DNA from: Oscillatoria princeps RMCB-10
GTDB taxonomy: Bacteria > Cyanobacteriota > Cyanobacteriia > Cyanobacteriales > Oscillatoriaceae
Direction: 5' to 3'
Length of the DNA: 44,372 nucleotides
NCBI GenBank assembly: GCA_019359235.1
Contig: JAHHHT010000012.1
Coordinates: 195,648 to 240,019, forward strand
A model generated the notes under the pieces. The model ran no database searches and had not been told where the DNA came from. It saw only the letters and a program-made list of their open reading frames with translations. The translations under genes were made by a program, and so were the position numbers. Of the stretch, positions 2,238 through 38,136 are shown one piece after another. Each line of letters begins with the position of its first letter. The stretch's first letter is position 1.

Positions 2238-2260
2238 TAGGGCAGGCGTCTCGCCTGCCC
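2238..2260. repeat. Family-B hairpin (gtagggcaggcgtctcgcctgccc), followed by a second palindrome gtaggtgggtcgctctaggagcaacccaccctac up to about 2315.
   Basis: A perfect inverted repeat. Related copies are at 9717, 19428, 19467, 22998, 23106 and 25429. Confidence 0.6.
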
Positions 2261-2323
2261 TCAATGTCTAATGCTAGAGTAGGTGGGTCGCTCTAGGAGC
2301 AACCCACCCTACAAACTCAGCAG

Positions 2324-4393
2324 TTAGTCTTTACCGGCAACTGATGAGTGATGGTGATTTTTCTCAGCCAGCACCGGCAACTCACAAAACTCGCCAATGT
2401 AAGATGCCGGCAATTGACGCTTGCCATTGCCGGTTTCAGAAACTGAGTGCAGAGACGCCAGATGTACCGTCTCAACGGCTGCCGGCTTGCTGCGCCGGCC
2501 CGCCCAAAAAGCGCCGGCTGCGATCGCCCCCCCGGCAGGTATCGCCCACCACCAAGGCAAGGATGAAGGATTGAGGGTAAAAGCTGAAAAATTCTCCTTT
2601 GCTCCCTTGCTCGCCTGCTCCTTTGCTCCCTTGCTCGCCTGCTCCCCTGCTTTCTTGCTGCCACCGCGCAACGATTGCGCGTACAGCTGAATTGCGCCTT
2701 GGGTGACGATGCTATCTCCCTCAAATAAACCGTTTTTCACCTCAACTGTATCACCGGCAGTTTGACCTAAAGTGACTTCCACCGGCTCGAAATTCTGACC
2801 GTTTTGCGCGTAAACCAGCGCCTTGCCATTCGCCTCCACCACCGCAGCGGCGGGAATCGCCACAACAGCAGCCGGTGTTTTGTCGGTTATCACTTCCAAT
2901 TCCGCAAACATCCCCGGTTTTAACTGTCCGCTGGCATTCTCCAATTCCGCTCTCACCGGCACCACCCGCGTTTCCCCATCCACCACAGAACCAATCACCG
3001 CAATTCGTCCCGTGAAAGTGCGCTCCGGCAAACTCGCCACCCTCACGCGCACCTGCTGACCAATCTCTACCTTACTCAAGTCTTTTTCATATATATTTGC
3101 CGTCGCCCAAACGCGACTGTCATCCAAAATCGTCATCAAAGGTTTGCCGGCGGCATCAACCGATTCCCCGGGAGTAATATCTCTGTGCGCAACCCTGCCG
3201 GCAATCGGCGCTGTGACCGTAACAGTGCCATCCTCACTAGCCGCCGTTCCCAGCTGTTTCAGGCGAGTTCGGTAAGCCGTGTCGCTCAGCTGCAAGCGGG
3301 ATAAAGCCACCTCCACCGCAGCAGTCGCCCGTTTGACTTCTGCCTCAGCTTCCAGAACGTCCCGGCGCTGGTTTGCCTTAGTTAATTGCGCTTGCGCTTC
3401 AGCCAATTTTGCTTGCGATTCCCGCAACTCCCGCACCGGCAACTCCACCTCAGCCCGCTTGACTTCGGTTTCCGCTTGCAAAACATCCGGACGGCTTTTT
3501 GCCCTAGCCAGTTGGGCTTGACCTTCTGCCAAATGCGCTTGCGACTCCAGCATCTGCCGGCGCGGAATCGCTCCTGATTCCGCCAGTTCTTTATCCCGCT
3601 CGTACTGCTCCCGCGCCACTGCCAATTCAGTTTCGGCTCGCGCTATTTCCGCTTCGGCTATCTCAACATGACGCTGGTAGTTTTCTTTTGCCACCGCCAA
3701 AACTGCTCTCTCATCCACCAGAGCTTTATCTCTCTCGTACTGCGCCCGAAACGCAGCCAGTTGGGTTTGGGCTTGTTCTATCTCCGCAGAGGCTATTTTT
3801 CCCTGACGCTCCAAGTTTTCTTTAGCGAGTTTCAAGTTCGCCTCGGCTTCCTTCAGATCCGCCTCCGCCTCGGCGCGTTTCGCCAGAGATTCGACGCGCA
3901 AATTCACCAAATCAGAACTTGACAAAATTGCCACAGTCTGATTTTTTTTCACCGCATCACCCGGCTCTACCAGCAGCCGCACCAGCTTGCCGGCAACTGG
4001 CGCTGTCACCTCCACTTTTTGGCTGGGCAGAGTTTCAATCTCGCCGGTAGTTTTAATGCCAACATCCAGCTGCTGCTTGGTCACGGGTTTAACCTCAATC
4101 CCCATCCGTTTTGCGGTTTGGGCGTCCACCGCAATCCCTTCCGGGGTGGTGGCTTCCGAGCTGCTGTGGAACTCGTCCCCGTGACCGGCGTGGGCTTTCA
4201 CAGCTGCCGGTGCGACAGAAGTCAGAAGTAAAACGCTAAAAGTAAAAACAAAGACTTCTTTTATCTGGGCGCTGAGCCGGCTCTGCCTCCCAACTCTCGC
4301 TTTCGGGCGGTAGGGGCGAGCCTTGCGCCCGCCCGGAGCGGGGCTGACCATTTCTGTTTGTGCCTTGTTTTGGGAGAGAGTCTGCAACCGCAT
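2324..4393 (-). CDS. RND efflux periplasmic adaptor (HlyD/CzcB/CusB family) with a His-rich N-terminus and a long coiled coil.
   Basis: The protein is 689 aa. It has a TM segment VFVFTFSVLLLTSVAPAAV, then HAGHGDEFH, a lipoyl/beta-barrel segment, an extended coiled coil, and a C-terminal barrel ending in SKGAKEQASKGAKE repeats. Confidence 0.85.
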   Translation of the reverse strand: MRLQTLSQNKAQTEMVSPAPGGRKARPYRPKARVGRQSRLSAQIKEVFVFTFSVLLLTSVAPAAVKAHAGHGDEFHSSSEATTPEGIAVDAQTAKRMGIEVKPVTKQQLDVGIKTTGEIETLPSQKVEVTAPVAGKLVRLLVEPGDAVKKNQTVAILSSSDLVNLRVESLAKRAEAEADLKEAEANLKLAKENLERQGKIASAEIEQAQTQLAAFRAQYERDKALVDERAVLAVAKENYQRHVEIAEAEIARAETELAVAREQYERDKELAESGAIPRRQMLESQAHLAEGQAQLARAKSRPDVLQAETEVKRAEVELPVRELRESQAKLAEAQAQLTKANQRRDVLEAEAEVKRATAAVEVALSRLQLSDTAYRTRLKQLGTAASEDGTVTVTAPIAGRVAHRDITPGESVDAAGKPLMTILDDSRVWATANIYEKDLSKVEIGQQVRVRVASLPERTFTGRIAVIGSVVDGETRVVPVRAELENASGQLKPGMFAELEVITDKTPAAVVAIPAAAVVEANGKALVYAQNGQNFEPVEVTLGQTAGDTVEVKNGLFEGDSIVTQGAIQLYAQSLRGGSKKAGEQASKGAKEQASKGAKENFSAFTLNPSSLPWWWAIPAGGAIAAGAFWAGRRSKPAAVETVHLASLHSVSETGNGKRQLPASYIGEFCELPVLAEKNHHHSSVAGKD

Positions 4394-4442
4394 AACCAGA
4401 AGCCTCTTGTGGGAGATAGGACATACTGTAGAGTTACATAAG

Positions 4443-4463
4443 AAAATGAAATCAGGATGAAAT
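4443..4463. promoter_or_regulatory. Second copy of the AAAATGAAATCAGGATGAAAT direct-repeat motif, 50-70 bp upstream of the adaptor start at 4393.
   Basis: A 21/21 match to the copy at 1057..1077, at identical spacing to its start codon. Confidence 0.45.
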
Positions 4464-4528
4464 CCCTCAACTGTATTTCTGGGTATCCCAAATAGTATGA
4501 TGCTGAATAAAGAATCAGGAGGCGCAGA

Positions 4529-6046: not shown

Positions 6047-6072
6047 TGCGTCTAAATCATTCGTGTAAATTT

Positions 6073-6129
6073 CAGACCCCCGGAAGAGGGCGGGCACGGG
6101 GGCCCGCCCCTACGAAACCGGGGGTCTGG
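6073..6129. repeat. Family-E nested GC-rich hairpin (cagacccccgg...gggcgggcacgggggcccgcccctacgaaaccgggggtctg).
   Basis: Has inner and outer inverted repeats. Related copies are at 24858..24889 and 37066..37099. Confidence 0.6.
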
Positions 6130-6297
6130 GCCAAGAGCGGTTGCGCCAATCATTTAGAACTGCTATATTATAGAAATAATCCCTAGGAAGTGCGGTTGCC
6201 GGTTGAGCCTCGAAGGGGCGAGCTATCAACCAGTAGATGCGCGACGTTGGGGAAAGTTTTAAACCGGCTTTTTGGCTGTATTAACAGGAGTCCCGAC

Positions 6298-6501
6298 ATG
6301 CAGTTTGAACTGTACCAGAGTGTAGCCTTGCGCCGTGACTTGCCACAATCTAACCTGAAAAAGGGGGATGTGGTGACGGTGGTTGACTTCGTTCCTTACC
6401 CGCTCGAAGGTTGTGAGGAGTGCTACATCCTGGAAAGATTTAACGCTGCAGGAGATAGGGAGCTAGTGGCTGTCTCCGGTTCGGATTTGGCAGCGGTGTG
6501 A
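6298..6501 (+). CDS. DUF4926-like small protein (67 aa).
   Basis: Reads MQFELYQSVALRRDLPQSNLKKGDVVTVVDFVPYPLEGCEECYILERF.... An AGGAG Shine-Dalgarno lies 8 bp upstream. The same fold recurs in the N-terminus of the 25026..25409 product. Confidence 0.5.
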   Translation: MQFELYQSVALRRDLPQSNLKKGDVVTVVDFVPYPLEGCEECYILERFNAAGDRELVAVSGSDLAAV

Positions 6502-6518
6502 GCCAGCCGGTGAAATAA

Positions 6519-6606
6519 ACTACAAACTTTTGGGCTAAAGCCCAAATACAAACTTTTGGGCTAAAGCCCAAATACAAACTTTTGGGCTAAAGCCCAACTA
6601 CAAACG
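6519..6606. repeat. Family-G tandem repeat: three copies of a ~27-bp unit, tacaaacttttgggctaaagcccaaa.
   Basis: Tandem copies containing the near-palindrome ttgggctaaagcccaa. Reverse-complement copies are at 13036..13188 (x6) and 38113..38136 (x1). Confidence 0.8.
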
Positions 6607-6798
6607 GGATGGGCGCTCCCTCCCTGTGAGCGCCCACCTTCTCAAGGAACCCCACGGCAAGTTAAAATCAGTGTCGCGCCCGTCGTGGTGTCCCTAAACT
6701 ATTGCTGTTCCGGCACTATTTTCCAAATTTAGTGCCGGCATTTCTCGCCTTCTGGGGCTGGTGTGTGGTAGAATAGCCACATCACCAGAGGTGAAACC

Positions 6799-6999
6799 AT
6801 GCGGCAAGTGCTTATCTATACTGATGAAGATGGCAACTGGGTGGCCGAATGTCCCAGCCTACCGGGTTGCGTCAGCCAAGGACAGACCAAAGAAGAAGCC
6901 ATTATTAATATCAAAGAGGCGATTAATTTATATATCTCCGCATTAGAAGAGGACGGTCTGCCCGTTCCCGAAGAACGTTTTGATGCCCTCTTGGTTTGA
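6799..6999 (+). CDS. hicB: HicB-like antitoxin (UPF0150 family).
   Basis: Reads MRQVLIYTDEDGNWVAECPSLPGCVSQGQTKEEAIINIKEAINLYISALEEDGLP. It overlaps the downstream HicA gene by 20 nt. Confidence 0.65.
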   Translation: MRQVLIYTDEDGNWVAECPSLPGCVSQGQTKEEAIINIKEAINLYISALEEDGLPVPEERFDALLV

Positions 7000-7219
7000 G
7001 AGCAAATTACCTAGAATTTCGGGCCGAGAGTGCGTCAAGGCTCTATCAAAGATTGGTTTCTATGTCAAGCGACAGGAAGCCAGCCATATTGTTTTGCGTC
7101 GGGATGAGCCATTTTCTCAGTTCGTCGTGCCCGACCATCAGGAACTTCACAAAGGCACACTCCGCGCTATCATTCGCGACGCTGACCTCAGTGTCGATGA
7201 GTTTATCCAGCTGCTGTGA
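6980..7219 (+). CDS. hicA: HicA-family toxin (YcfA-like mRNA interferase).
   Basis: Reads ...ECVKALSKIGFYVKRQEASHIVLRRDEP...VVPDHQELHKGTLRAIIRDADLSVDEF, carrying the conserved S-H-hydrophobic motif. Confidence 0.65.
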   Translation: MMPSWFESKLPRISGRECVKALSKIGFYVKRQEASHIVLRRDEPFSQFVVPDHQELHKGTLRAIIRDADLSVDEFIQLL

Positions 7220-7368
7220 GGGGGGATGGGTTGGCAATCTGAATGAAGGACGCTTAATCGAAACCCCAAGCTCTTAAGATGCGTTGGGCTGGGCCGAACG
7301 ACCCTATTTACTGCCGTGACACTTCAGAGCTATCCTGAAAAATGGGTTTCTCTAGATATTTCCCTGAA

Positions 7369-7710
7369 ATGGCAGTCTATCAAGTCCGGCTGGTGAATCC
7401 AGCGCTCAAACTCGACCGCACCATCGCAGTACCAGACGACCAGTACATCCTCGATATCGCTGAAGACGCCGGCATCCGATTGCCGGCTGGCTGCAAACAA
7501 GGCGACTGCTCCGCCTGTGTCGCCAAACTGGTAAGCGGTGAGGTCGATCAGAGCGAGCAAAAATTTCTCCGCCCCTCAGAAATAGCCGCTGGGTACATCG
7601 TGACCTGTGTGACTTATCCCCTCTCTGATTGCACACTGGAAACCCACCAAGAACAAGTCCTCTATCAATCCTCTCTTTACTTTAAGCCTGAAGCCGCCCC
7701 ATCTGAGTGA
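7369..7710 (+). CDS. Plant-type [2Fe-2S] ferredoxin.
   Basis: Reads MAVYQVRLVNP...IRLPAGCKQGDCSACVAKLVSGEVDQSEQ...YIVTCVTYP. The C-x4-C-x2-C ... C spacing is the plant-type ferredoxin signature. The listed ORF start at 7342 is probably too far upstream. Confidence 0.8.
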   Translation: MAVYQVRLVNPALKLDRTIAVPDDQYILDIAEDAGIRLPAGCKQGDCSACVAKLVSGEVDQSEQKFLRPSEIAAGYIVTCVTYPLSDCTLETHQEQVLYQSSLYFKPEAAPSE

Positions 7711-7780
7711 TTCTCTCTAGTCGGGGATATAATTTAACGTAAAATCGCATCAAGACACAGCCAAGAAACAGCCAAAGACC

Positions 7781-7813
7781 AGAAACCAGATTTCTTTAAG
7801 AAACCTGGTTTCT
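7781..7813. repeat. Family-D palindrome (agaaaccagatttctttaagaaacctggtttct), with degenerate half-sites (tttcttgac) continuing to ~7865.
   Basis: Inverted repeat. Near-identical copies are at 9744, 17211, 30622, 30670 and 33061. Confidence 0.6.
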
Positions 7814-7960
7814 TGACTTACCCGCCTAGGGACTCCCCCGTTTCTTGACTTCCCTATTTCTTGAGTCCCTACTGCAAACTGCCTCACAGCAGGCGACTTC
7901 CGGCAAATGCACGCTATACTCTTCCATTAAATTAAATCCCCCAGCACGGTCGAGATAGAT

Positions 7961-8773: not shown

Positions 8774-8808
8774 GTAGGGTGCGTTCCCTAAGAGGGAACG
8801 CACCCTAC
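8774..8808. repeat. Family-A hairpin (gtagggtgcgttccctaagagggaacgcaccctac).
   Basis: A perfect 15-bp stem. Copies are at 9309..9343 and 25466..25500. Confidence 0.7.
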
Positions 8809-8853: not shown

Positions 8854-9306
8854 ATGAAAATGATCCGGTTTCTTTACGAAAAATCAGTTTCCTATAAAGG
8901 ACATCTCATCATCCCCTTTGTTTTTGTGCTGGCCGGTGGCCAGCACATATATTCCTATGCCTTACTCTCTGACTCCGGGCATAAAGGGCGATTTCACAAA
9001 GCAGAAAACCCTGCCGGCATCTATTCAGACAGCCTGGATGGCATCGTCGAGATTGCCAAAGAACATCTCTACCGACATTGCCCCGCTGCCGGTGCCGGTG
9101 ACAATTTTAAGTCTCGCTACACCTATCGCGACAACCTGATCATCGTCTGCCAACTCGCCGGCAAATTTTTCTACGACCATTATAAACCCGACAGTTTAAC
9201 CAATGTCGCCGCCCCCAAACTATTCACAACCGAAAGCGAGTGCCTCAACTGGATAAAACAGGGACTCGACGGCTCACCTACTGACTCCCTCCCCCAAACC
9301 CAGTAA
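8854..9306 (+). CDS. Hypothetical protein (~150 aa).
   Basis: Intact ORF reading MKMIRFLYEKSVSYKGHLIIPFVFVLAGG.... No recognisable domain. It is flanked on both sides by family-A hairpins. Confidence 0.35.
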   Translation: MKMIRFLYEKSVSYKGHLIIPFVFVLAGGQHIYSYALLSDSGHKGRFHKAENPAGIYSDSLDGIVEIAKEHLYRHCPAAGAGDNFKSRYTYRDNLIIVCQLAGKFFYDHYKPDSLTNVAAPKLFTTESECLNWIKQGLDGSPTDSLPQTQ

Positions 9307-9308: not shown

Positions 9309-9343
9309 GTAGGGTGCGTTCCCCCCAGGGGAACGCACCCTAC
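9309..9343. repeat. Family-A hairpin (gtagggtgcgttccccccaggggaacgcaccctac).
   Basis: Inverted repeat with the same arms as the copies at 8774 and 25466. Confidence 0.7.
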
Positions 9344-9716: not shown

Positions 9717-9777
9717 GTAGGACAGGCGTCTCGCCTGTCCATTAAGAAACCCGGTTTCTTTAAGAAACCGGGTTTCT
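9717..9777. repeat. Family-B hairpin (gtaggacaggcgtctcgcctgtcc) immediately followed by a family-D palindrome (aagaaacccggtttctttaagaaaccgggtttct).
   Basis: Two inverted repeats lying just 3' of the AcrB-type pump gene. They may act as a terminator. Confidence 0.6.
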
Positions 9778-13035: not shown

Positions 13036-13188
13036 AAGTTTGTAGTAGGGCTTTAGCCCAAAGGTTCGTAGTAGGGCTTTAGCCCAAAGTTTGTAGTAGG
13101 GCTTTAGCCCAAAGTTTGTAGTAGGGCTTTAGCCCAAAGTTTGTAGTAGGGCTTTAGCCCAAAGTTTGTAGTAGGGCTTTAGCCCAAA
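13036..13188. repeat. Family-G tandem repeat: ~6 copies of a ~25-27-bp unit (gtttgtagtagggctttagcccaaa).
   Basis: A perfect tandem array inside the 300-bp adaptor-pump intergenic spacer. It is the reverse complement of the 6519 array. Confidence 0.85.
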
Positions 13189-13200
13189 ACGCATAAGGAG

Positions 13201-13246
13201 GAGGCAGAGCCTCCTGGAAAGGGTTCCCAGGCGGAGCCTGGGAACC
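13201..13246. repeat. Family-C element (gaggcagagcctcc ... gttcccaggcggagcctgggaac).
   Basis: Other copies at 23033..23079, 24908..24952 and 26930..26975 carry the same two modules in the opposite order. Confidence 0.6.
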
Positions 13247-13294
13247 AGATTAAAAAAGAAAAGGGCGTTTTTCTCCCTTTTCCCTTCTCCCCTC

Positions 13295-14932
13295 TCACTT
13301 CTCCCGTGCTCCCTTGCTCCCTTTCCCCTCACCGCTGGGGAGGGGCATAATAGGCGCACCGTCAGCCAGCTTTTGGATGCCGGAAACAATAATAGTGTCA
13401 CCGGGCACAAGTCCTTCGATGACTTCCGCACGATCCCCATTAACCAAGCCCAGTTTCACCGGCTGCCGTTTCGCCACCGCCGGCTCGTCGGGTCCTGGAG
13501 CCACAAACACAAATCGCTCCTGACCTTGGAAAACCACAGCCGTTGCCGGCACCACAGCACTAGAGCGCCGGTTCCAAATCACCTTGGCCCGCACGAACTC
13601 GCCATTCAGCAGCTGCCCTTGGGGATTGTCAAACGCCGCTTTTGCCAGAACCGTTTGCGAGTCAGTCACCGTTGGGGAAATAAAGCTAACCCGACCTGTC
13701 CCCAAGGATTTCCCTTGCGAGTCGCTCAGCTCCACCGGCAGCCCCTCACGCAAATCCGACGCCCGCTCCAAAGGAACCGGCATGCGCAGTTCCAGAAATT
13801 CGTTCTGCGTCACCGTGGTGATCTCGTCCCCTTTTTTGACATAATCTCCCAATTTCACGGGAATATCGCCGATTTTCCCGGCAAAAGGGGCCACTACCGC
13901 CGCCCTTTCCAGCTGGGATTCCGCGTTCCGCACTTGGGCTGCCGCTTGGGCCACTTGCGCTTCCGCTTGCGCGATCTCCTCTGGGCGGGAGCCATTCTGC
14001 AGTTGCAGCAGGGCTTGCCGCTGCTGTTCCACTTCCGCTTTCAGCCGCTCAATGTCGGAAGTCCTGCCCTTTCGCACTTGAGCCAAGCGCCTTTCGGCTT
14101 CTTGCAACTGGGCGGCGGCGCTGCGGTCTTCTTTTATATATTGATCCAGCGTGTCCTGAGCAATCGCCCCCTGCTGCGCCAATTCCCCATACCGGCTCAC
14201 CCGCTGCTTGGTGAGTTCTGCAGCGGCTTTTGCCGACTCCAATCGCGCTTCAGCTTGAGCGATCTCTTCCGGTGCCGCCCCAGCTTGCGCATCGGCGAGG
14301 CGGGTTTCCGCTGCGGCTAAACTGGCTTTGGCTCTGGCAATTTCCTCCGGGCGGCTGCCGGCTTGCAGCTCTTTGAGCCTAGCTTCGGCACCGAGCTGGT
14401 TCGCCTTGGCTTGGCGGAGCTCGGCTTGCAGGGAGTCGCTCTCTATGCGAGCCACCGAGGTCCCTTTTGCCACCTGCGAGCCGGATTTGACATAGATTTC
14501 CCTGACTAAACCGTCGATTTCTGCCTTCAGCCCCACTGACTTCTGGGCCTCTAGGGTGCCGACAAACTCCGAGGACTCTTCCACAGGGGCGAGCGCCACT
14601 CGCGCTAGCTTCACCGGCACTCCGCGAGGTTTGCTCAGGGCTGCCGGTGGGCCGCCCGCCGCCCCCTGGCTGCGCGACTGCCACCACTGCCAGCCGAAAA
14701 CCCCACCTCCTGCCAGCAGCAGCAGCCCCACCGCCATCAGCGCAGGCAGCAGCAGCGATCCGGATTTTGGTGGCGGCTGTTCTGCCGGCGGCTCATCTGG
14801 CTCGTATTCCCCCGCATCCTCTGGAGAGAGGACGTAGCCGGTCTTTACATCATCCTGAATGCGAGCCGGTTTCTCCTCGGCTTCAGCTAACCCCTCAGGG
14901 TTCTTAACATGATTGGTTTTCGTCATCAGCAA
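13295..14932 (-). CDS. RND efflux periplasmic adaptor subunit (HlyD family).
   Basis: The protein is 545 aa, with a TM anchor LLLPALMAVGLLLLAGGGVFGW, a coiled-coil hairpin and a beta-barrel. It lies upstream of the pump on the same strand. Confidence 0.85.
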   Translation of the reverse strand: MLMTKTNHVKNPEGLAEAEEKPARIQDDVKTGYVLSPEDAGEYEPDEPPAEQPPPKSGSLLLPALMAVGLLLLAGGGVFGWQWWQSRSQGAAGGPPAALSKPRGVPVKLARVALAPVEESSEFVGTLEAQKSVGLKAEIDGLVREIYVKSGSQVAKGTSVARIESDSLQAELRQAKANQLGAEARLKELQAGSRPEEIARAKASLAAAETRLADAQAGAAPEEIAQAEARLESAKAAAELTKQRVSRYGELAQQGAIAQDTLDQYIKEDRSAAAQLQEAERRLAQVRKGRTSDIERLKAEVEQQRQALLQLQNGSRPEEIAQAEAQVAQAAAQVRNAESQLERAAVVAPFAGKIGDIPVKLGDYVKKGDEITTVTQNEFLELRMPVPLERASDLREGLPVELSDSQGKSLGTGRVSFISPTVTDSQTVLAKAAFDNPQGQLLNGEFVRAKVIWNRRSSAVVPATAVVFQGQERFVFVAPGPDEPAVAKRQPVKLGLVNGDRAEVIEGLVPGDTIIVSGIQKLADGAPIMPLPSGEGKGSKGAREK

Positions 14933-15130: not shown

Positions 15131-15470
15131 TCAGCCTGCGGCAGGAGAGAATATTTTTTGCCAGCTGAATCCCGGCAACGGGATTGAAATGACCCAGCTC
15201 TCTCGCGGATGCTCCAGCATTTTTTGCCGCCAGCGGGCCCGTCCTTTGGCCATGATGCTGTAGATTTTGCGGCAGGGGCCGCTTTCTGACTCCTCCTCCC
15301 CAATGGCGACAATCTCGCCCCGCTCTTGCAAGCCCTTCAGAGCGCGGATAAATCGCTCCGTAGCTGACACTGATGCAGCCGCTCATCAACAGCTCCAGCT
15401 GCTGCTTCAGCCGGTAGCCGTGCGTGGGTTCGCGCTACAATTGGCCCTGTGCGGATAGCTCTAGCTTTTA
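15131..15470 (-). pseudogene. Decayed PadR-family transcriptional regulator.
   Basis: Frame B reads KLELSAQGQL*REPTHGYRLKQQLELLMSGCISVSYGAIYP, with an in-frame TAG where the conserved AEGPMHGY helix is expected. A 1-nt frame change then leads into frame A, which reads ALKGLQERGEIVAIGEEESESGPCRKIYSITAKGR, the PadR wing and helix alpha-4. No ATG starts the reading frame. Confidence 0.55.
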
Positions 15471-17210: not shown

Positions 17211-17245
17211 GAGAAACCCGGTTTCTTTAAGAAACCGGGTTTCTC
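17211..17245. repeat. Family-D palindrome (gagaaacccggtttctttaagaaaccgggtttctc).
   Basis: Inverted repeat between the convergent adaptor and kinase genes. It may act as a bidirectional terminator. Confidence 0.6.
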
Positions 17246-19283: not shown

Positions 19284-19427
19284 TTACCGCAATTTTTTAT
19301 AAAGAGTGGAATCTATTCTTAGGATAGCGCCGGCCTGCAACTCAGGACTGTCTGGCTTGCCAGCGCAGTCGCCGCCAGAGGCGGGGAAAACGGGAGCATC
19401 CCGATTTTGTAAGTCTATTCATTTTTT

Positions 19428-19491
19428 GTAGCACAGGCGTCTCGCCTGTGCCAGAAAAATAGCTGTGGGACAGGCAAGATGCCTGTCCTAC
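19428..19491. repeat. Two adjacent family-B hairpins (gtagcacaggcgtctcgcctgtgc ... gggacaggcaagatgcctgtcctac).
   Basis: Inverted repeats in the divergent region between the kinase and the pump gene. Confidence 0.6.
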
Positions 19492-19705
19492 AAGAGATGG
19501 GTTTACAAAAATGGGATGCTCCCGGGAAGACTCTGCCGGCCATACCCTTGAGGCTGCTGAATCGGATTCGCTATCGCGCAACAATCGGTGCCCCAGTCAC
19601 TGTGCCGGTTGCCACCGGCACAGGCGCTAATCCCCAATGGCGAATGGCACCGGGAAGAGGTACAATTCTGAAATATCAATTATCAATTAGAGATGCAAAA
19701 GAAGA

Positions 19706-22945: not shown

Positions 22946-22997
22946 GGAGAGGAACCCCACCCCCTAGCTCCCTCCCCGGAAGCGGGAAGGGGGGATA

Positions 22998-23130
22998 AGG
23001 GACAGGCGAGACGCCTGTCCTACGTCTTTTCTCGTTCCCAGGCGGAGCCTGGGAACGCACACAGGGAGGCTCTGCCTCCTTTTTTTGCCTGGGAAGGGAC
23101 AGGCGGGACGCCTGTCCTACGTCTTTTTTT
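22998..23130. repeat. Cluster of three elements: family-B hairpin, family-C element, family-B hairpin.
   Basis: The three pieces are gggacaggcgagacgcctgtcctac (22998..23023), cgttcccaggcggagcctgggaacg...gggaggctctgcctcc (23033..23079) and gggacaggcgggacgcctgtcctac (23106..23130). Confidence 0.65.
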
Positions 23131-23205
23131 TGTTTCCTAGAGCGGGAAAATCGGAAAGCAGAATTTTGGCCTATTTTTTCTGGCGAAACCTAGCAAGGCA
23201 AAGCC

Positions 23206-23985
23206 TTACCAAGAATCATAGTCCGTCACGTCGATAGTGGTTCCCGTTTTTAAGTCTTCCACTTTAACGGAAAAGCCGGTGGGCCCGATACTAACCTGGC
23301 CGAACTTATAGATATATCTAGATGTTAGCGCCTCTTCGCCCACCCAGTTGGGCCAAGCAACCAGATTCTGATATTCTCGATCGGCAATTTTGCAAATCAG
23401 CTGTGCGTTTCGCTTTCCAGTCCAAGGATGGGACAATTCCTCATCCGTTACATAGGGTAAAAATGAATACTGAATTTCCGTTTCTCTCGCCCACTCAGCT
23501 TGTTCCTCTGGACGGCTGAGCGGCCTGATTAACTCTAAAGCTTCTTGGGCGAGGCTATGCCACACTTTCAGCTTGCAGCGACCGGCATCCAAAATTTGAA
23601 AGCAGTAAATACAGGCACCGCTGCTGCCACCCGCTCCATAATAAGGCAGGATTTTACCCGCTTTTTTTGCCTGTTTCATCAATTCTAATATACTCCTGTC
23701 CACTGGAAATCTCCCCCGGTAATAGCCAGTCGCTAGCTGTTCTTCAAACACTTGGGTGTCAACTTCGCGCTCCCACTGATAAATTTTGTCTAATTCCTCA
23801 CCGGCAGCCACCCGAAATCCAATTTCGCCGTTTAAATGCTGAACTTCTATCACCGGTTGCTCCCTCCTAGATGATTTATTGATAGCGGTTCTCAGTTTGT
23901 GATGGTACGCCTGTCCAAAACAAAACAGTTTGCTTTTTGACGATAATTTCCAGCCCCACGGCGCAGTGTCGCTCGTGCCGGTCAT
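23206..23985 (-). CDS. Hypothetical protein (259 aa).
   Basis: Intact ORF with no recognisable domain. It contains GAGGSSGACIYC. It is divergent from the PIN toxin module. Confidence 0.4.
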   Translation of the reverse strand: MTGTSDTAPWGWKLSSKSKLFCFGQAYHHKLRTAINKSSRREQPVIEVQHLNGEIGFRVAAGEELDKIYQWEREVDTQVFEEQLATGYYRGRFPVDRSILELMKQAKKAGKILPYYGAGGSSGACIYCFQILDAGRCKLKVWHSLAQEALELIRPLSRPEEQAEWARETEIQYSFLPYVTDEELSHPWTGKRNAQLICKIADREYQNLVAWPNWVGEEALTSRYIYKFGQVSIGPTGFSVKVEDLKTGTTIDVTDYDSW

Positions 23986-24144
23986 TTGTAAACGAGGCGC
24001 TTTGGTGAGCCAGTCAGACGCCTTCCCCTACCACCGGCTCCTGGCCACTTCTAATCAGTAGCTCGGTTCAACTAGCAGGGCATTGCGCCTTACCGACAGC
24101 TGTGCTATCATTATAATATGTTTTTAAGGGAAAAGGTAGGAATA

Positions 24145-24380
24145 ATGCCAGCCCTCACATTAACCGACGACCAGGTGATTGAATTAGTCAAGCAATTGCC
24201 TCGTAGCAAACAAGAAGAATTGTGCAACTAGCGCAGCCTTGGTAATCCTGGGCGAACTTGGCGCAGGATGCACCAGAGAAGGCGCGGCGTGCTGCTGCGA
24301 AACGGGGGCGAGACTGGGATGCCATGACAGAGGATGAGCGCGAAGAGTTTATTGATGAAGTGCTCCACGAGGAAGAATGA
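24145..24380 (+). pseudogene. Candidate antitoxin gene upstream of the PIN toxin, with a broken reading frame.
   Basis: ATG 24145 opens the frame MPALTLTDDQVIELVKQLPRSKQEELCN, which stops at TAG 24229. In a different frame a plausible C-terminal half follows, (L)AQDAPEKARRAAAKRGRDWDAMTEDEREEFIDEVLHEEE*. Its TGA overlaps the PIN ATG as ATGA. Confidence 0.4.
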
Positions 24381-24793
24381 CAGCCCCCACAGTTGTGTTC
24401 GGCACGAACATCCTGATATCTGCCGTCCTCTCACTGGCTGGCAAACCGTTTCAATGTACAGCACTGGCGAAAAGGGGTTTAGTAAAATCTGTCACCTGTC
24501 AGGAAATTCTTAATGAGTTTCAAGAAAAACTTACAGTCAAGTTCGAGTATGAGCCTCAACGCGCTCAAGCCTTTGTTCAAGAGGTACTCGACTATTCAGA
24601 GCTGGTGACGCTGACAAATACTCTCAGAGTAGTCGATGCTGACCCTGACGATGATATGGTTTTAGAGTGCGCCGTTGTCGGAGATGCTAGTTATATTATT
24701 ACAGGAGACCGGCATCTCCTGACCCTCGTCAGTTATCATGGTATTTCTATTCTTAAAGCAGCCGATTTTCTCGCTCTGCTTTTCCAGGGGTGA
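24377..24793 (+). CDS. PIN-domain toxin (putative toxin-antitoxin system toxin component, PIN family).
   Basis: Reads MTAPTVVFGTNILISAV...VVDADPDDDMVLECAVVGDASYIITGDRHLL. Acidic residues sit at PIN-like positions and there is a C-terminal ITGD motif. Confidence 0.65.
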   Translation: MTAPTVVFGTNILISAVLSLAGKPFQCTALAKRGLVKSVTCQEILNEFQEKLTVKFEYEPQRAQAFVQEVLDYSELVTLTNTLRVVDADPDDDMVLECAVVGDASYIITGDRHLLTLVSYHGISILKAADFLALLFQG

Positions 24794-24857
24794 GGTAGAT
24801 TATAAACAGCGAACGCGCTCATCTCGCCTGTCCTCTCGCCTGTCCAAAACACAACAC

Positions 24858-24952
24858 CGGGGGCGGCCACGGGGGGCCGCCCCTATAGGCTGTGGGCCAT
24901 TTTCTCGTTCCCAGCCTCAGGCTGGGAACGCACAGAGGGAGGCTCTGCCTCC
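24858..24952. repeat. Family-E hairpin (ccgggggcggccacggggggccgcccctatagg) followed by a family-C element (gttcccagcctcaggctgggaac...gggaggctctgcctcc).
   Basis: Inverted repeats. Confidence 0.6.
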
Positions 24953-25025
24953 TTTTCCTCGCCGCAACACCGGCGCTTCCCAGCTAAACCAGCAACTAGC
25001 GCTGATATAGCAGCAGTCATATTGG

Positions 25026-25409: not shown

Positions 25410-25465
25410 CGTCGCCTCCGTACATATAGGCGTCTCGCCTGTCCTCTCCTACCCCACACAGATTT

Positions 25466-25541
25466 GTAGGGTGCGTTCCCTCTTCGGGAACGCACCCTAC
25501 CCCTACGAAGCATTACTCCCCTCCCCGCCGGCGGGGAGGGG
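25466..25541. repeat. Family-A hairpin (25466..25500) followed by a family-F hairpin (cccctccccgccggcggggagggg, 25518..25541).
   Basis: Inverted repeats. A family-F copy is present in reverse orientation at 38061..38085. Confidence 0.65.
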
Positions 25542-26929: not shown

Positions 26930-26975
26930 TTCGTCTCTCGTTCCCAGGCTCTGCCTGGGAACGCAATCTGGAGGC
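26930..26975. repeat. Family-C element (gttcccaggctctgcctgggaac ... ggaggctctgcctcc).
   Basis: Inverted repeat with the same modules as at 13201, 23033 and 24908. Confidence 0.6.
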
Positions 26976-27085
26976 TCTGCCTCCTTTCAACGGAAAAGCA
27001 GATTAAAAGCCTAACAGCTTAAACCGCCAAGGACGCCAAGAACTCTTGGCGCTCGCAGGGAGGGAGCGGTTCCTTCTTAAAGACA

Positions 27086-30621: not shown

Positions 30622-30705
30622 CAGAAACCCGGTTTCTCCAAGAAACCGGGTTTCTTCACTCCGTGGCCAAGAAACCCGGTTTCTCAGAGAAACCGGGTTT
30701 CTTCA
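30622..30705. repeat. Two tandem family-D palindromes (agaaacccggtttctccaagaaaccgggtttcttcactc, twice).
   Basis: A pair of strong hairpins immediately 3' of psbU. They are likely a rho-independent-style terminator. Confidence 0.7.
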
Positions 30706-32821: not shown

Positions 32822-33060
32822 AACATTTTTGACCCCATAACACCCTTGGCCTCAAAACACCTATCAGTTAGACGCGCCCCTCAGGAGTTCATTATATCAG
32901 TGAATTCACTTACCTGTCTGCAAAAAATCTGCGCAACCCGTACATTCACGTAAATATACTTTAATTTACAAAAATACACAATGGAGGCTTAACCCGTCAT
33001 CTTTGTTAAGAAAAGGGAGAGCGGGGCGTCAATCTGAGCGGGCTGGCTGAGCGGAACGTC

Positions 33061-33094
33061 AAGAAACCAGGTTTCTTTAAGAAACCCGGTTTCT
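33061..33094. repeat. Family-D palindrome (aagaaaccaggtttctttaagaaacccggtttct).
   Basis: Inverted repeat in the spacer downstream of the GGDEF gene. Confidence 0.6.
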
Positions 33095-33251
33095 GGTGGT
33101 GGCTCTCTTCAACTTAATGATGTCCGCCGGCGCTCGCCCAGCTTTTCAAGAAGATAAGAGGCAATATTAATAAATGTAAAGCCCGCTCGCCGCACAGTCA
33201 GTAGTTTTGCTGACCGGCACAGCACTTGAGTGGGGCGAGCCCGGGTGTTAT

Positions 33252-35414: not shown

Positions 35415-35708
35415 GGTTGAGAGTCTCCTGCAGTGGTTCAGATGACACCCCAGTTGTGACGCCGGTTGCCTGTAGTTGCCGGTTGTGCCAAAGCCGAAAT
35501 CCCGTGGCTAGTGCCTTGAGCGACTTCCACCGGCTCGGAACGCCCCCACACTTAAAGTTCGAGAGAAAGGGGGACAAACCGGGTTTCTGGCTGTAGAAAA
35601 CCCAGCTGTGTTCAGACGCGACGGGCGCGTTCCACTGTAGGAAACAGGGTTTCTTTTAATTGCTCAGGGGGTTTTCAAGGGCAGGCTCTCAGTAGCAGCA
35701 GATTGCCG

Positions 35709-36002
35709 TCAGCGCGGTGGCGAGGGGGTTGGCGAATCCTCCGCAGTCGGGGATTCGGACGCCCGGTCGGAATAGTCCGCGATCGCAAAAATGTAAATCG
35801 CGTGAGCTAGCAAAAGCAGCGCCCAGCTGCCCGTCACCCAAGGAGTCCATATCCAGGGTGACGGCTGCAAGATCCGGAAAAACCACATGCTGGAATTGCT
35901 AGCGCCAAAAATGGCCACATGCACGGCAAAATTCATCCGGTCGTCCAAGCGGCGGTAGGCTGGGTCGCGGCGGTCGGGTTTGCGGGGCCAACGAGGGGGC
36001 AT
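35709..36002 (-). CDS. 2TM-domain membrane protein.
   Basis: Reads DPAYRRLDDRMNFAVHVAIFGASNSSMWFF...WIWTPWVTGSWALLLLAHAIY, which matches the 2TM architecture. The probable start is at the Met of MPPRWP, and the ORF may extend to 36086. Confidence 0.45.
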   Translation of the reverse strand: MPPRWPRKPDRRDPAYRRLDDRMNFAVHVAIFGASNSSMWFFRILQPSPWIWTPWVTGSWALLLLAHAIYIFAIADYSDRASESPTAEDSPTPSPPR

Positions 36003-36193
36003 AGAGAACCTTTGAGTAGGGTGCTGGGATTGAGCGGTGACTTCAATTGTAGAGCTATTGCCGGTGCGGGCGGATCTGCTGGCCACCTGAGGCCACCGAT
36101 AAGATTAACTTGTTGTGAAACCCGCTCATCGGGGCAGGGACTAGCGTTAGAATTCAAGAAGACCCTAAAAATCTGCGTTTACAGACGAGTTTT

Positions 36194-36724
36194 GTGACTG
36201 CCGAGCAATTCCTGGGCACCGCTTCCCCAAAGCGCCACAATTACCTGGCCATCATCGCACTCCCCGATGAAGCCTCCGCCTTCCAAGCCTATCGCCTGCT
36301 GCAATATCACGGGATTTCCCCCGAGCATTTGGCGATTGTCGGTCAGGGCTACAGCTCTCCTGAAGGGGTGGGGCTATTGCAGCCGGTGCAAATCGCACTC
36401 CGCAACGCCCGCCGCTTGGCCATGCTGGCCGGCTCTTTGGGGCTGGCGATGGGAGTCGTTTCTTTTACGGTGTTGAATTTGGCATTTAAGGTGCCACTCA
36501 CTCTCAGCTTGCTGCTCTTGATTCCAGCAGCCGGCACCGTTGGCGGCTTCTGTGGGGCTGTCGTGGGAGCCTTATTCGGCTTTTTGGGAGAGGGCAGCAC
36601 GGCTGGAATCTACCGGCATCACCTGCGTCAGGGGCATTACTTGCTGATGATGGAAGGGCCAGAAAAGATCGTCCGCTTGGGGCAGCAAGTCCTCAAACAG
36701 TATTGCTCGCCTAAAGCCCGCTGA
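36194..36724 (+). CDS. Stress-protein-like membrane protein (YflT/DUF1269-like N-domain plus a Gly-rich TM region).
   Basis: Reads NYLAIIALPDEASAFQAYRLLQYHGISPEHLAIVGQGY, followed by two hydrophobic Gly-rich helices. Confidence 0.4.
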   Translation: MTAEQFLGTASPKRHNYLAIIALPDEASAFQAYRLLQYHGISPEHLAIVGQGYSSPEGVGLLQPVQIALRNARRLAMLAGSLGLAMGVVSFTVLNLAFKVPLTLSLLLLIPAAGTVGGFCGAVVGALFGFLGEGSTAGIYRHHLRQGHYLLMMEGPEKIVRLGQQVLKQYCSPKAR

Positions 36725-37065
36725 ACTCTGCCGGCGATTCGACAGTGCCGGTAAATTCAGGGCATGTACAAGAAGTGCTGGACAGTTCGATAACTCCCAT
36801 CTTGGCCCGCCCAACGTGAAAGGCCGCAGGGGAACTCTGTCGCGTCTGGGGCTGGATCTGTCTGGGATGTCGGTGATCTCCTTGAAAGAGAGTAGGGGCG
36901 GGGCGAACCCAGAATCTTGGCCACAAAACCCGCATCTATATAAACCCCCCCGGCACTGGCCTTGTCCTAAACTGACTGTTTATTGCGCTCATTGCTGATA
37001 TAGCGTTTCTCAAATAAGTGTGCTGGGGAGAAACCGCTCCTAACGGAGCAGCTACGCTAACGGTA

Positions 37066-37099
37066 GGGGCGGAAGGGCCCGCCCCTACGAAATCGGGTT
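37066..37099. repeat. Family-E hairpin (taggggcggaagggcccgcccctacgaaatcggg).
   Basis: Same core (gggcgg..gcccgcccctacgaaa) as the copy at 6090. Confidence 0.6.
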
Positions 37100-37192
37100 G
37101 ATGGGCCATAGCGCAAAGCCTCTATATGTAGGGTGGGTTAGCGATAGCGTCACCGGCACCACACCAGATTAAGTGTCGCTGCGTAAGTCCTG

Positions 37193-37215
37193 CAAACTCT
37201 AAACTCTAAACTCTA
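37193..37215. repeat. Heptamer tandem repeat (aactcta x3).
   Basis: Direct repeats at the 3' end of the GT2 gene. Confidence 0.5.
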
Positions 37216-37983
37216 AAATTGCTCTGTCTGGTTTTTCCGCCGCAAGGAAAACCGGCCAATAATTTGCACGTCCAGTTCGTACTGTTCAGCAAGTCCGCGA
37301 CGCTCTATCGCCCGCCGGCTCGCCACAGCCGACCAATTGATTAAATCGATTTGCCGGCGGGTCAAATTCGAGTCATGTATGCGATAATAGTAGAGGGCTT
37401 TATCCAGGTGCCTGATTTGGGTTATCTCTGAAAGTCGCAAGCACAAATCATAATCTTCCGCCAGTTCCATTGAGGGGTCAATCCCACCGGCAGCCAAGTA
37501 GGCATCCGTCCGCATCAATCGGAAGTGGAATGTCATGAAGTCAATCAGCAGCCGGTTTTTGGAATAGGGAATTTGGCTGCGCTGTCCGATTCCTTTGACA
37601 TTGCCAAACGCATCGATGACGAGATAGTCGGTGTAGACGAGTCCCACTTTTGGGTTGGCATCCAGAAAACCGGCAGTTTCTTCAAGTGCTGTGGGCTCTA
37701 GCAAATCGTCACTATCTACCCAGCCGGTGTGAGTTCCAGAACACATGGCGTGAGCCGCTTTGAGAGCCGGCGCTCGCCCTTGATGGGGGGCAGCAATTAT
37801 TTTCACTCGTTCGTCTAGTTTAGCATAATTGCCGGCAATATCTAAAGAACTGTCGGTGGAGCCGTCATCCCACACCAGAAGCTCGAAGTCTTTTCTCGTC
37901 TGCGCCAAGACACTTTCTATCGCAGCGCCCAGGTAGCGCTCTCGATTGTAGACCGTCATTATTAGGGAAATTGTGGCTGTCAT
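37213..37983 (-). CDS. Family 2 glycosyltransferase.
   Basis: Reads MTATISLIMTVYNRERYLGAAIESVLAQTRKDFELLVWDDGSTDSS...GWVDSDDLL, carrying the DxD motifs and the GT-A fold. The listed ORF extends to 38055, but the likely start is the Met at ~37983. Confidence 0.8.
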   Translation of the reverse strand: MTATISLIMTVYNRERYLGAAIESVLAQTRKDFELLVWDDGSTDSSLDIAGNYAKLDERVKIIAAPHQGRAPALKAAHAMCSGTHTGWVDSDDLLEPTALEETAGFLDANPKVGLVYTDYLVIDAFGNVKGIGQRSQIPYSKNRLLIDFMTFHFRLMRTDAYLAAGGIDPSMELAEDYDLCLRLSEITQIRHLDKALYYYRIHDSNLTRRQIDLINWSAVASRRAIERRGLAEQYELDVQIIGRFSLRRKNQTEQF

Positions 37984-38060
37984 GGGGGGTGAGAGAGGTT
38001 TTGGCTTGAAAAAATTGGGGTGTACTCTGGCGTTGCATATTCCTGAACCCGGCACCCCAA

Positions 38061-38136
38061 CCCCTCCCCGCGTGCGGGGAGGGGGAGAAAGAGATGGAGT
38101 TTCTCCAAACAGGTTTGTAGTAGGGCTTTAGCCCAA
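38061..38136. repeat. Family-F hairpin (cccctccccgcgtgcggggaggggg, 38061..38085) plus a single family-G unit (gtttgtagtagggctttagcccaa, 38113..38136).
   Basis: Inverted repeat plus one unit of the 27-bp tandem family. Both sit exactly at the point where the PAP2-like reading frame loses its homology. Confidence 0.65.

Follow-up and report, generated by a model that had tools for sequence, protein, structure and literature searches.

The 44,372-nt stretch of Oscillatoria princeps RMCB-10 DNA analyzed here (the window) carries, among other genes, rnc, psbU and a HlyD-AcrB operon, and the spacers between its genes contain small, dispersed palindromic repeats of several kinds. An earlier note on this DNA sorted the repeats into seven families, A through G. 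All seven are present, at or no more than ~10 nt from the sites it listed, with a few corrections: the B copy placed at 23106 actually occupies 23097-23120, the C copy placed at 26930 occupies 26940-26984, and the family G unit, given as ~27 bp, measures 25-26 bp. Not in that listing were an extra GTAG family, H (GTAGGGTGGGTT...), which has copies at 2275-2312 and 37128-37170; fragments of the B right arm (24822-24845); a hairpin resembling F (22969-22992); and degenerate D units at 35574 and 35640. Each family is represented by 3-11 copies within the 44 kb window. The individual elements, together with one gene fragment, are as follows.

2237-2261, plus strand: family B REP, GTAGGGCAGGCG-TCT-CGCCTGCCCT
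2275-2312, minus strand: family H REP, GTTTGTAGGGTGGGTTGC...GCGACCCACCTAC
6073-6135, minus strand: family E REP TTTCGTAGGGGCGGGCC..GCCCGCCC (6088-6113), nested in a second palindrome, CAGACCCCCGG..CCGGGGGTCTG
6519-6605, minus strand: family G head-to-tail array, 3.3 units of 26 bp (6521-6605)
7781-7813, unstranded: family D dimer, two 15-bp palindromes AGAAACCNGGTTTCT with an 18-bp period; kept in a relative's locus (L108)
8774-8808, unstranded: family A double-headed REP, GTAGGGTGCGTTCCC-loop-GGGAACGCACCCTAC; site without A in a MAG locus (L109)
9309-9343, unstranded: family A, convergent genes on either side
9717-9740, plus strand: family B REP
9745-9777, unstranded: family D dimer, 4 nt past the B copy
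13036-13188, plus strand: family G head-to-tail array, 6.1 units of 25 bp, in the HlyD-AcrB operon spacer
13200-13245, minus strand: family C, hairpins GTTCCCAGGC..GCCTGGGAAC and GGAGGC-TCT-GCCTCC
17212-17244, unstranded: family D dimer; PCC 10802 has a single unit here plus B and C copies
19392-19530, unstranded: 139-bp REPIN-like element, outer inverted repeat GGGAGCATCCC
22969-22992, unstranded: F-like hairpin, CCCTCCCCGGAAGCGGGAAGGGG
23000-23023, minus strand: family B REP, with a T-run after it on the plus strand; kept in PCC 10802
23034-23079, plus strand: family C; second hairpin plus T7 resembles an intrinsic terminator
23097-23120, minus strand: family B REP, with a T-run after it on the plus strand
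24822-24845, plus strand: B right arm twice in tandem (TCTCGCCTGTCC), slippage product
24858-24885, minus strand: family E with degenerate head (TATAG)
24907-24952, plus strand: family C, GCC..GGC stem variant
25426-25447, plus strand: truncated family B copy
25466-25500, unstranded: family A; site without the element in PCC 10802
25518-25541, unstranded: family F perfect palindrome; site without the element in PCC 10802
26940-26984, plus strand: family C; kept in PCC 10802 with the stem and loop of the other subfamily
30623-30655, unstranded: family D dimer, psbU 31 nt upstream; missing in PCC 10802
30670-30702, unstranded: family D dimer; kept in PCC 10802
33062-33094, unstranded: family D dimer; kept in PCC 10802
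37063-37088, unstranded: family E double-headed REP, GTAGGGGCGG..CCGCCCCTAC
37128-37170, plus strand: H-like copy, GTAGGGTGGGTTAGC..., poorly palindromic
38061-38084, unstranded: family F palindrome
38113-38136, plus strand: lone family G unit, next to the broken 3' side of the haloperoxidase fragment
38146-38587, minus strand: vanadium haloperoxidase (PAP2 superfamily) fragment, both ends cut (4cit_A, E = 8e-14)

The repeats are concentrated outside genes and exceed what chance would produce. Of the perfect hairpins whose stem is 8 bp or longer, 34 lie in the ~10 kb of non-coding DNA and nine in the ~34 kb of coding DNA (34 of 43 intergenic). Nineteen perfect hairpins carry a GTAG tag, whereas 50 shuffles gave 3.9 on average and never more than 8; 17 of these 19 are intergenic, as expected of extragenic GTAG REPs. 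The family-A arm, allowing up to three mismatches, finds 8 matches where 1.0 is expected. Stems span 8-17 bp, and the elements have the short stem-loop form (20-40 bp) of REPs. DNA folding gave z-scores of -3.7 to -12.6 in 9 of 11 element-bearing stretches, those with the clearest elements; folding was weaker (z = -2.1) in the stretch with E at 37063 and the H-like copy. That said, the claim that almost every intergenic region contains an element was too strong: about 18-19 of ~28 spacers do, while the remainder, mostly short or divergent (promoter) spacers, are empty.

Families A, B, E, G and H share a head, (T)TTN-GTAG-GG, followed by a GC-rich palindrome. Because a GT(A/G)G head at the end of a GC-rich palindrome is the signature of REPs, these families are, as judged from their sequences, members of the GTAG-tagged REP super-family. 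No such head occurs in families C, D and F, which were therefore not filed as GTAG REPs; they are untagged palindromes that lie in the same clusters as the tagged families and show the same turnover. The unifying head, which marks four of the original seven families as REPs, had been overlooked in the first reading. The elements occur as single units, double-headed units (A and E), an inverted REPIN-type doublet, head-to-tail arrays (G), and mosaics (B-C-B). Across 17 distinct B copies the stem is paired in 98.7% of cells; four of its nine pairs show double changes, and there are no one-sided or G-T changes. Stem symmetry is thus maintained in strictly Watson-Crick fashion, which fits constraint on a DNA palindrome. 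Earlier papers describe GTAG REPs from cyanobacteria together with cognate TnpA_REP subclasses (PMC3733652; PMC6006769), and 1,055 REPs have been reported in one filamentous cyanobacterium (PMC12306157). The hairpin repeats of the window are genuine but belong to an already-known kind of genome component, and most are ordinary REP-type elements.

The elements were compared with those of Oscillatoria sp. PCC 10802, which is syntenic with the window over 21 kb at 83-96% identity depending on segment, mostly ~90%. Roughly 16 family elements lie in the common 21 kb; ~7 are conserved in PCC 10802, two are partial and ~7 are absent (among them the 139-bp doublet, A at 25466, F at 25518 and D at 30623). 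PCC 10802 in turn carries its own B and C insertions at orthologous spacers. Copies of the A, B, C, D and F types are found in scattered blocks of its chromosome (0.69-5.4 Mb), and arrays of G are found in Oscillatoria sp. Prado101 as well as in metagenome contigs of Oscillatoria-like character. Short-read contigs of close relatives end within elements (L002 in C and D, L108 and L109 in A), as expected of high-copy repeats. Among the matches listed, the family-A arm is multi-copy in cyanobacteria only, and the B hairpin, GTAGGACAGGCG-N3-CGCCTGTCC, has exact matches in upwards of 120 metagenome contigs, whose flanks are unrelated and whose GC contents range from 32% to 72%.

These comparisons support the suggestion that the families include miniature mobile elements, for they recur at dispersed, non-syntenic sites in relatives, and the comparison of filled and empty sites that the earlier note proposed reveals clear presence and absence at orthologous spacers in PCC 10802. 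Copies are present in other Oscillatoria-like assemblies too. Relative to PCC 10802, about half of the elements are conserved and half have been gained or lost, one gain being the 139-bp element. Differences in presence could also stem from deletion or recombination between copies rather than transposition.

Some copies had been said to coincide with points where genes are disrupted. One of them, the G unit at 38113-38136, indeed adjoins a haloperoxidase (PAP2-superfamily) gene where it is broken on its 3' side; the remnant at 38146-38587, which matches residues 187-340 of a 458-aa vanadium haloperoxidase, is a truncated pseudogene. The family-A pair at 8774 and 9309 likewise brackets the ORF at 8854-9306. 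The pair and the ORF were considered as a composite element, an idea rejected because a related MAG keeps the ORF without the upstream A copy. It is doubtful that this ORF is coding, since differences by codon position (9/9/10) lack the pattern seen in rnc (1/3/16).

The elements lie predominantly 3' of genes and between convergent genes, as the first reading had it: 15 fall in 2.5 kb of convergent spacers (5.9 per kb) and two in 1.5 kb of divergent spacers (1.3 per kb), a placement typical of REPs. Position of this kind would also be expected if the elements were primarily RNA 3'-end signals, either terminators or stabilizing hairpins, fixed downstream of genes in an organism without Rho, with their repetition a by-product. 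Rho is absent from cyanobacteria, in which many transcript ends lack an explanation (PMC12642595); three of four C copies have a T-rich tail, and the B-C-B triplet after the second AcrB gene, which is kept in PCC 10802, provides the three best terminator-like sites of the window. The earlier proposal of terminators therefore holds for a few copies such as this triplet, but not for the elements as a group, which lack the intrinsic-terminator layout of a GC hairpin followed by a T-run on the upstream gene's strand. A T-run follows only ~5 of 37 elements: B-C-B after the second AcrB gene, C at 24907, and a hairpin at 13258. Nor does the window show an enrichment of terminator-like sites relative to shuffles (30 versus 26.5; 33 versus 26.6). 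Moreover, genomes that are ~90% identical do not share about half of the elements, both orientations occur, copies sit inside the operon spacer at 13036-13245, and stem changes pass through no G-U intermediates. In Synechococcus, U-less transcript ends are mostly unstructured (PMC12642595). A primary role in forming RNA 3' ends is unlikely.

The 139-bp element at 19392-19530 deserves separate consideration. It consists of two inverted B REPs, their GTAG heads facing outward, within 11-bp outer inverted ends, and folds at -45.8 kcal/mol (z = -11). It is wholly missing from the orthologous PCC 10802 site, and it is the one element of the window with the REPIN character of inverted REPs that form a single long hairpin and behave as a unit. 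Its flanks, GGGAAAAC and GGGAAGAC, match at 7 of 8 positions. This match, seen at a single site, could represent an 8-bp target duplication, albeit an imperfect one; such duplications mark DDE-type MITEs as opposed to RAYT/IS200-type movement. Of the target-site duplications suggested as a check, this possible one is the yield; the other clear insertion, ~99 bp in PCC 10802 that include a B copy, has none. The element's size, inverted ends and absence from the orthologous site, along with the possible duplication, are what one would look for if the repeats were MITEs, that is, deletion derivatives of insertion sequences whose terminal inverted repeats are recognized by a DDE transposase that leaves target-site duplications. 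Yet only this element combines MITE size (70-300 bp) with inverted ends; the remaining families are too short, most copies being 24-46 bp. No second copy of the 139-bp composite was found in any fetched locus, no IS with matching ends was seen, and the conserved GTAG head is a mark of REPs. We consider a MITE origin for the families improbable.

That the elements might be small regulatory RNA genes or precursors, or the G arrays CRISPR-like, is very improbable: strong predicted structure and regular G spacing invite the idea, but nothing supports the small-RNA precursors earlier proposed, with no Rfam family matched at gathering score, no apparent promoter association and palindromes identical on both strands, and the G units adjoin at a 25-26 bp period without unique spacers, in a window with no cas genes, for which reason a CRISPR array was rejected.

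Movement as REPs is the favored reading. Families A, B, E, G and H are probably REPs copied and excised by a RAYT (REP-associated tyrosine transposase, of the Y1 HUH type) whose gene would lie elsewhere in the genome, with the C, D and F palindromes alongside. Such an enzyme would recognize the GTAG head and hairpin on single-stranded DNA, while changes in unit number and swaps between subfamilies would arise through replication slippage and gene conversion between copies. Insertions would persist mainly where they are harmless, on the 3' side of genes and in convergent spacers. In transcripts, some copies probably serve as 3' hairpins that stabilize mRNA, and the few with T-tails, such as B-C-B after the second AcrB gene, probably terminate transcription. 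NCBI gives the name "REP-associated tyrosine transposase" to a cyanobacterial RAYT family of 183-aa proteins with 2680 homologues; repeats of the form GTAGG(A/G)TGCGTTA...TAACGCA(T/C)CC flank its genes in Kovacikia, Gloeocapsa and Microcystis. No RAYT gene was found in the window or in further loci from Oscillatoria (~200 kb) and from metagenomes (700 kb), and none of the best 120 of the 2680 homologues lies on source or PCC 10802 contigs. A bolder scheme, which we regard as a long shot, is that all GTAG families share one RAYT lineage with loose hairpin specificity, that the B hairpin represents a cross-phylum REP lineage, and that U-less hairpins of convergent spacers have been co-opted in Rho-less cyanobacteria; if so, these hairpins would be mobile modules with a part in forming or insulating the 3' ends of transcripts.

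Among known systems, one of the closest is the GTAG-tagged REP super-family of Di Nocera, De Gregorio and Rocco (2013, PMC3733652), which includes the cyanobacterial GTAG-12, -15 and -16. Its members likewise have a GTAG head followed by a GC-rich stem of 6-13 bp and a short loop, are extragenic, occur as several families per genome in the form of singletons, head-to-head dimers and clusters, and may be inserted in another palindrome, as E is at 6073-6135. Head-to-tail dimers are described there as rare, whereas G arrays here reach six units, and the double-headed A and E have GTAG itself within their stems, of 15 and 10 bp respectively. The search for known families urged by the earlier note succeeded in part: the family A head resembles RAYT-flanking REPs and the G core equals a Haemophilus REP, but the present consensus sequences have no match in the text or supplements of PMC3733652, although they may be identical with one of its listed families.

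For family A the comparison is with the repeats that flank genes of the 183-aa RAYT family (TnpA_REP class 2; Quentin 2018, PMC6006769). Those of Microcystis have their first 12 nt, GTAGGGTGCGTT, in common with family A, and those of Kovacikia and Gloeocapsa 11 of the 12 head nucleotides. Past GCGTT the flanking repeats continue A...T, unlike the CCC...GGG of family A, and their loops are 8-12 nt as against 3-5 nt. The 139-bp element is like the REPINs of Pseudomonas fluorescens (Bertels and Rainey 2011, PMC3116915) in being a pair of inverted REPs that forms one hairpin and is present or absent as a whole; unlike the situation there, the window has one doublet, and most copies are singletons or members of mixed clusters. 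Finally, the Haemophilus influenzae REP GTAGGGTGGGCTTTAGCCCACC (Nunvar 2010, PMC2817692) has the hairpin core of family G, GGGCTTTAGCCC, and the head of family H, GTAGGGTGGG, although it comes from another phylum, and here head and core reside in separate families and G is tandemly arrayed.

The short palindromic and tandem repeats that populate the spacers of this window are dispersed elements, as the earlier note had surmised in naming mobile elements as one possibility: scattered copies occur in related genomes, and both filled and empty orthologous sites are seen in comparison with Oscillatoria sp. PCC 10802. All seven families originally described, A through G, were recovered, none more than about 10 nt from its assigned positions. 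The sites themselves were right, but two of the start positions are out by about 10 nt and the length of the G unit is 25-26 bp. The picture of repeats in almost every intergenic region was overdrawn, since by our own count about two-thirds of spacers carry an element and the rest, chiefly short or divergent spacers, are empty. Of perfect hairpins with a stem of 8 bp or more, the non-coding sequence (about 10 kb) holds 34 and the coding sequence (about 34 kb) holds 9; the repeats account for about 15% of the window's non-coding DNA. The following features were absent from the earlier inventory:

2275-2312 and 37128-37170: family H (GTAGGGTGGGTT...), an eighth family
24822-24845: B-arm fragments
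22969-22992: an F-like hairpin

Families A, B, E, G, and H share a common head. Read on the proper strand, each starts with GTAG, followed by GG and a GC-rich palindrome, often with a T-rich lead in front:

Family A: (ATTT)GTAGGGTGCGTTCCC
Family B: (GAC)GTAGGACAGGCG-TCT-CGCCTGTCC
Family E: (TTTC)GTAGGGGCGGGCC
Family G: (GTTT)GTAGTAGGGCTTTAGCCC
Family H: (GTTT)GTAGGGTGGGTTGC

The window contains 19 instances of GTAG joined to a perfect hairpin, against 3.9 in shuffled sequences, and 17 of the 19 are intergenic. Judged by sequence, this architecture is the one that defines the GTAG-tagged super-family of repetitive extragenic palindromes (REPs), a super-family already reported in cyanobacteria (PMC3733652). 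The GTAG head is missing from families C, D, and F, which share their clusters with the tagged families; the decamer GTGCGTTCCC is common to C and A.

The hairpin-forming character of the repeats was borne out by folding. As single-stranded DNA, representative elements fold far better than shuffled controls, with z-scores of -3.7 to -12.6 in nine of eleven stretches; folding is weaker (z = -2.1) in the stretch that holds the E element at 37063 and an H-like copy. In the Oscillatoria group, pairing holds for 98.7% of stem cells over 17 distinct B copies, a percentage inflated by the choice of copies with at least 7/9 pairs. Both-side changes are present in 4 of the 9 stem pairs and one-sided or G-T states in none, an absence that the choice of copies does not inflate. 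This pattern fits constraint on a DNA palindrome, or its templated repair, better than a constraint acting on RNA only.

Dispersal extends well beyond the window. Among the matches listed from 596 Gb of sequence, a 15-mer from the A arm occurs in multiple copies in cyanobacteria alone (PCC 10802, two Oscillatoria MAGs, many Microcystis, Cylindrospermum, Lyngbya, and Limnospira); the single matches outside this group are about as many as chance would give for a 15-mer. The PCC 10802 chromosome carries copies of the A, B, C, D, and F types in blocks from 0.69 to 5.4 Mb. G arrays are also found in Oscillatoria sp. Prado101 and in Oscillatoria-like metagenome contigs, fourteen of which contain D units at 0.38 per kb. 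In both near-identical and related short-read assemblies, contigs end inside copies of C, D, and A, the usual effect of high-copy repeats on assemblies. A phage origin was rejected, as neither a D dimer nor a full A element has a match in IMG/VR.

Two observations concern the arms of individual families. In Microcystis (L010 2300-2720 and L046), A arms GGTGCGTTCCCC...GGGAACGCACCCTAC surround a loop of ~35 nt holding HIP1 (GCGATCGC) sites, and these units form 94-bp tandem arrays, so that the same arms are found in another architecture. The exact B hairpin GTAGGACAGGCG-N3-CGCCTGTCC, present in the window at 9717, 23000, and 23097, recurs in more than 120 metagenome contigs (L114-L233) with unrelated flanks and GC contents from 32% to 72%, often near variant hairpins with compensatory stems; none of about 60 named non-cyanobacterial 8-kb blocks contains it. 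With only about 8 free stem positions, this recurrence may be due in part to the limited sequence space of REPs.

The gene content of the window provides the framework for comparison with relatives. The G+C content of the window is 54%. The window encodes PsbU, DUF3120, a TIGR03279 radical-SAM protein, RNase III, two AcrB/HlyD efflux systems, sensor kinases, and several small toxin-antitoxin genes. The PsbU protein is also present on an 8,634,711-bp JGI record (3300057162 Ga0558713_001), 20.4 kb of which is 100% identical to the window. The nearest named genome is PCC 10802 (Kamptonema formosum in NCBI), whose radical-SAM protein is 96% identical and whose chromosome is syntenic with window ~15,200-36,350, at 83-96% nucleotide identity by segment and mostly about 90%. 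Synteny stops near 15,200 (L105 21008-21332 in PCC 10802), and a TnpB/Cas12f-like gene lies ~1.3 kb past that point.

Several other features of the window are of separate interest. An unlisted HicB/HicA-like toxin-antitoxin pair occupies 6800-7220, a stretch first treated as spacer, and the matching place in a related contig (L108 436-2422) holds a gene for a 475-aa HicB-like protein and a HIRAN-domain gene. Short-period repeats lie within or at the 3' end of two HlyD-family genes (8-bp CTCCCTTG-type units at 2594-2659 in the first, 7-8 bp TTCTCCC / CTCCCGTG-type units at 13271-13327 in the second), and each of the two genes contains similar sequence. A 117-bp tandem repeat (39173-39424, ~2.2 copies, 74-80% identity) overlaps a 78-aa ORF at 39281-39517. 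Two large adjacent ORFs of 909 and 441 aa on the minus strand (40299-44313), made up of internal DNA repeats of periods 126, 138, and 147 bp, probably encode repeat-domain surface proteins.

Orthologous spacers, compared as empty and filled sites, revealed clear presence/absence differences. By our own tally, the shared 21 kb contains ~16 family elements, and about half of these differ in presence between the two genomes. One element of 139 bp, at 19392-19530, is missing in PCC 10802; it is made up of two inverted B REPs within an outer inverted repeat, folds as one long hairpin, and is flanked by a possible 8-bp target duplication, a single imperfect case. After psbU, the first of two D dimers in the window is missing in PCC 10802, which has about 99 extra bp with a B copy 80 bp further on. 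The HlyD455 / histidine kinase spacer holds a D dimer in the window and B, C, and one D unit in PCC 10802. Similarly, the DUF4926 / radical-SAM spacer has a truncated B along with A and F in the window, and a full B with slipped right-arm copies in PCC 10802. The elements kept in PCC 10802 include two D dimers, the C copy at 26940, and the B-C-B triplet (23000-23120) that follows AcrB2, the second AcrB gene. The orthologous C copies at 26940 differ by a stem swap and a loop change that together equal the other C subfamily. Inversion of the hairpin core was rejected as the source of this difference, since the sequence is that of the other subfamily, and gene conversion or replacement is the better explanation.

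Larger differences were also seen among the relatives. A 1.8-kb segment (23131-24960) is missing at the orthologous site in PCC 10802; it contains genes for a 259-aa hypothetical protein and a PIN-domain toxin, a 40-aa ORF, and E and C elements, and a hairpin followed by TTTTCCTC stands at both of its junctions. Conversely, the DUF3120 / FHA spacer of PCC 10802 (L105 7450-7916) carries an insertion of ~365 bp, with two tandem repeats of ~150 bp, that the window does not have. A JGI metagenome contig that is ~92% identical (L107 4712-4830) runs from the radical-SAM gene through B and C1 directly into the first ~16-20 nt of AcrB2, and so is without about 5.8 kb of the window (AcrB2 to DUF4926). 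Repeats lie at the junction, and the gap is due either to deletion mediated by the repeats or to chimeric assembly.

Some copies had also been linked to points of gene disruption. The coincidence of a G unit (38113-38136) with the truncation of a PAP2-like gene is real, and the repeat may or may not have caused the truncation. The minus-strand ORF that runs from 38587 down to about 38146 aligns (E = 8e-14) with residues 187-340 of a vanadium haloperoxidase, a PAP2-superfamily protein of 458 aa, a homology visible only against solved structures; Pfam gave no match to the fragment even at E = 1. The alignment breaks off at the conserved W-R-P, within a few bases of the G unit; the ~180 N-terminal residues are missing from the fragment as well. 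A pair of A elements does bracket the orphan ORF at 8854-9306 as described. A composite A-ORF-A transposon was rejected, as a related MAG (L109) keeps the ORF without the upstream A. The two copies of the ORF differ about equally at the three codon positions (9/9/10 sites; 17 codons non-synonymous, 5 synonymous), compared with 1/3/16 for the neighboring rnc, and on these counts purifying selection may not be acting on the ORF as a gene. The DUF4926-like ORF at 6190-6501 was rejected as a second truncated gene; an ATG at 6299 yields 67 aa, taken as full-length for the family.

The placement of the repeats between convergent genes was upheld, with 15 elements in 2.5 kb of convergent spacers versus 2 in 1.5 kb of divergent ones. 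Such placement is usual for REPs and would follow from the removal of insertions that hit promoters. The proposal that the elements act as terminators probably holds for the B-C-B triplet: it supplies the three best terminator-like sites and is conserved, so that it probably terminates transcription. In all, a T-run lies behind only about five elements, the triplet included, and terminator-like sites are not enriched. A recent preprint reports that canonical termination accounts for a minority of operons in a model cyanobacterium and that its U-less transcript ends are mostly unstructured (PMC12642595), which by analogy would allow repeat hairpins some role in repeat-rich species while lending such a role no direct support. 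The suggestion of small-RNA precursors found no Rfam match at gathering score, and a tRNA/tmRNA scan of the window was likewise negative. RNA-level roles are taken to be secondary and local. The G arrays were rejected as CRISPRs because they have no spacers.

These repeats break short-read assemblies in this cyanobacterial group and are located at rearrangement and pseudogene junctions. Because at least eight families coexist and about half of the copies differ between genomes ~90% identical, the pair provides a natural system for the study of REP turnover, in which birth, death, slippage, and gene conversion are measurable outside the Proteobacteria. The same pair could also tell whether U-less hairpins shape transcript ends without Rho.

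Knowledge of the element kind is unchanged by these findings. REPs, their inverted doublets (REPINs), and the REP-associated tyrosine transposases (RAYTs) are well described, cyanobacteria included (PMC3733652; PMC6006769; PMC3116915), and about a thousand REPs have been reported in one filamentous cyanobacterium (PMC12306157). The window families are new in sequence and of a kind already described; their unusual traits are the coexistence of at least eight families, one head common to several, the head-to-tail arrays of G, and the double-headed A and E. Searches with phmmer and with a small profile that combined E. coli RayT with two RAYTs from L050 and L070 detected no RAYT in the Oscillatoria loci or across 700 kb of metagenome loci. 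Families A and G can nevertheless each be linked to a known REP-RAYT system. When plasmids were searched by tblastn with a RAYT query, cyanobacterial homologues were identified in Kovacikia and Gloeocapsa. The Kovacikia protein in turn found 2680 relatives, many named "REP-associated tyrosine transposase", and the best 120 of these include none on source or PCC 10802 contigs. Inverted GTAGGATGCGTTA...TAACGCATC repeats bracket the Kovacikia gene, and the interrupted Gloeocapsa gene has a perfect copy of this type upstream and a degenerate one downstream. Supplements of two REP/RAYT surveys contained none of the family sequences, and the only one found in the literature was the G core (Nunvar 2010, PMC2817692): the G hairpin GGGCTTTAGCCC is the core of the Haemophilus influenzae REP listed there with its RAYT. 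Family A has a comparable counterpart in Microcystis, where a RAYT gene carries GTAGGGTGCGTTA...TAACGCACC on its flanks, a repeat whose first 12 nt are shared with A.
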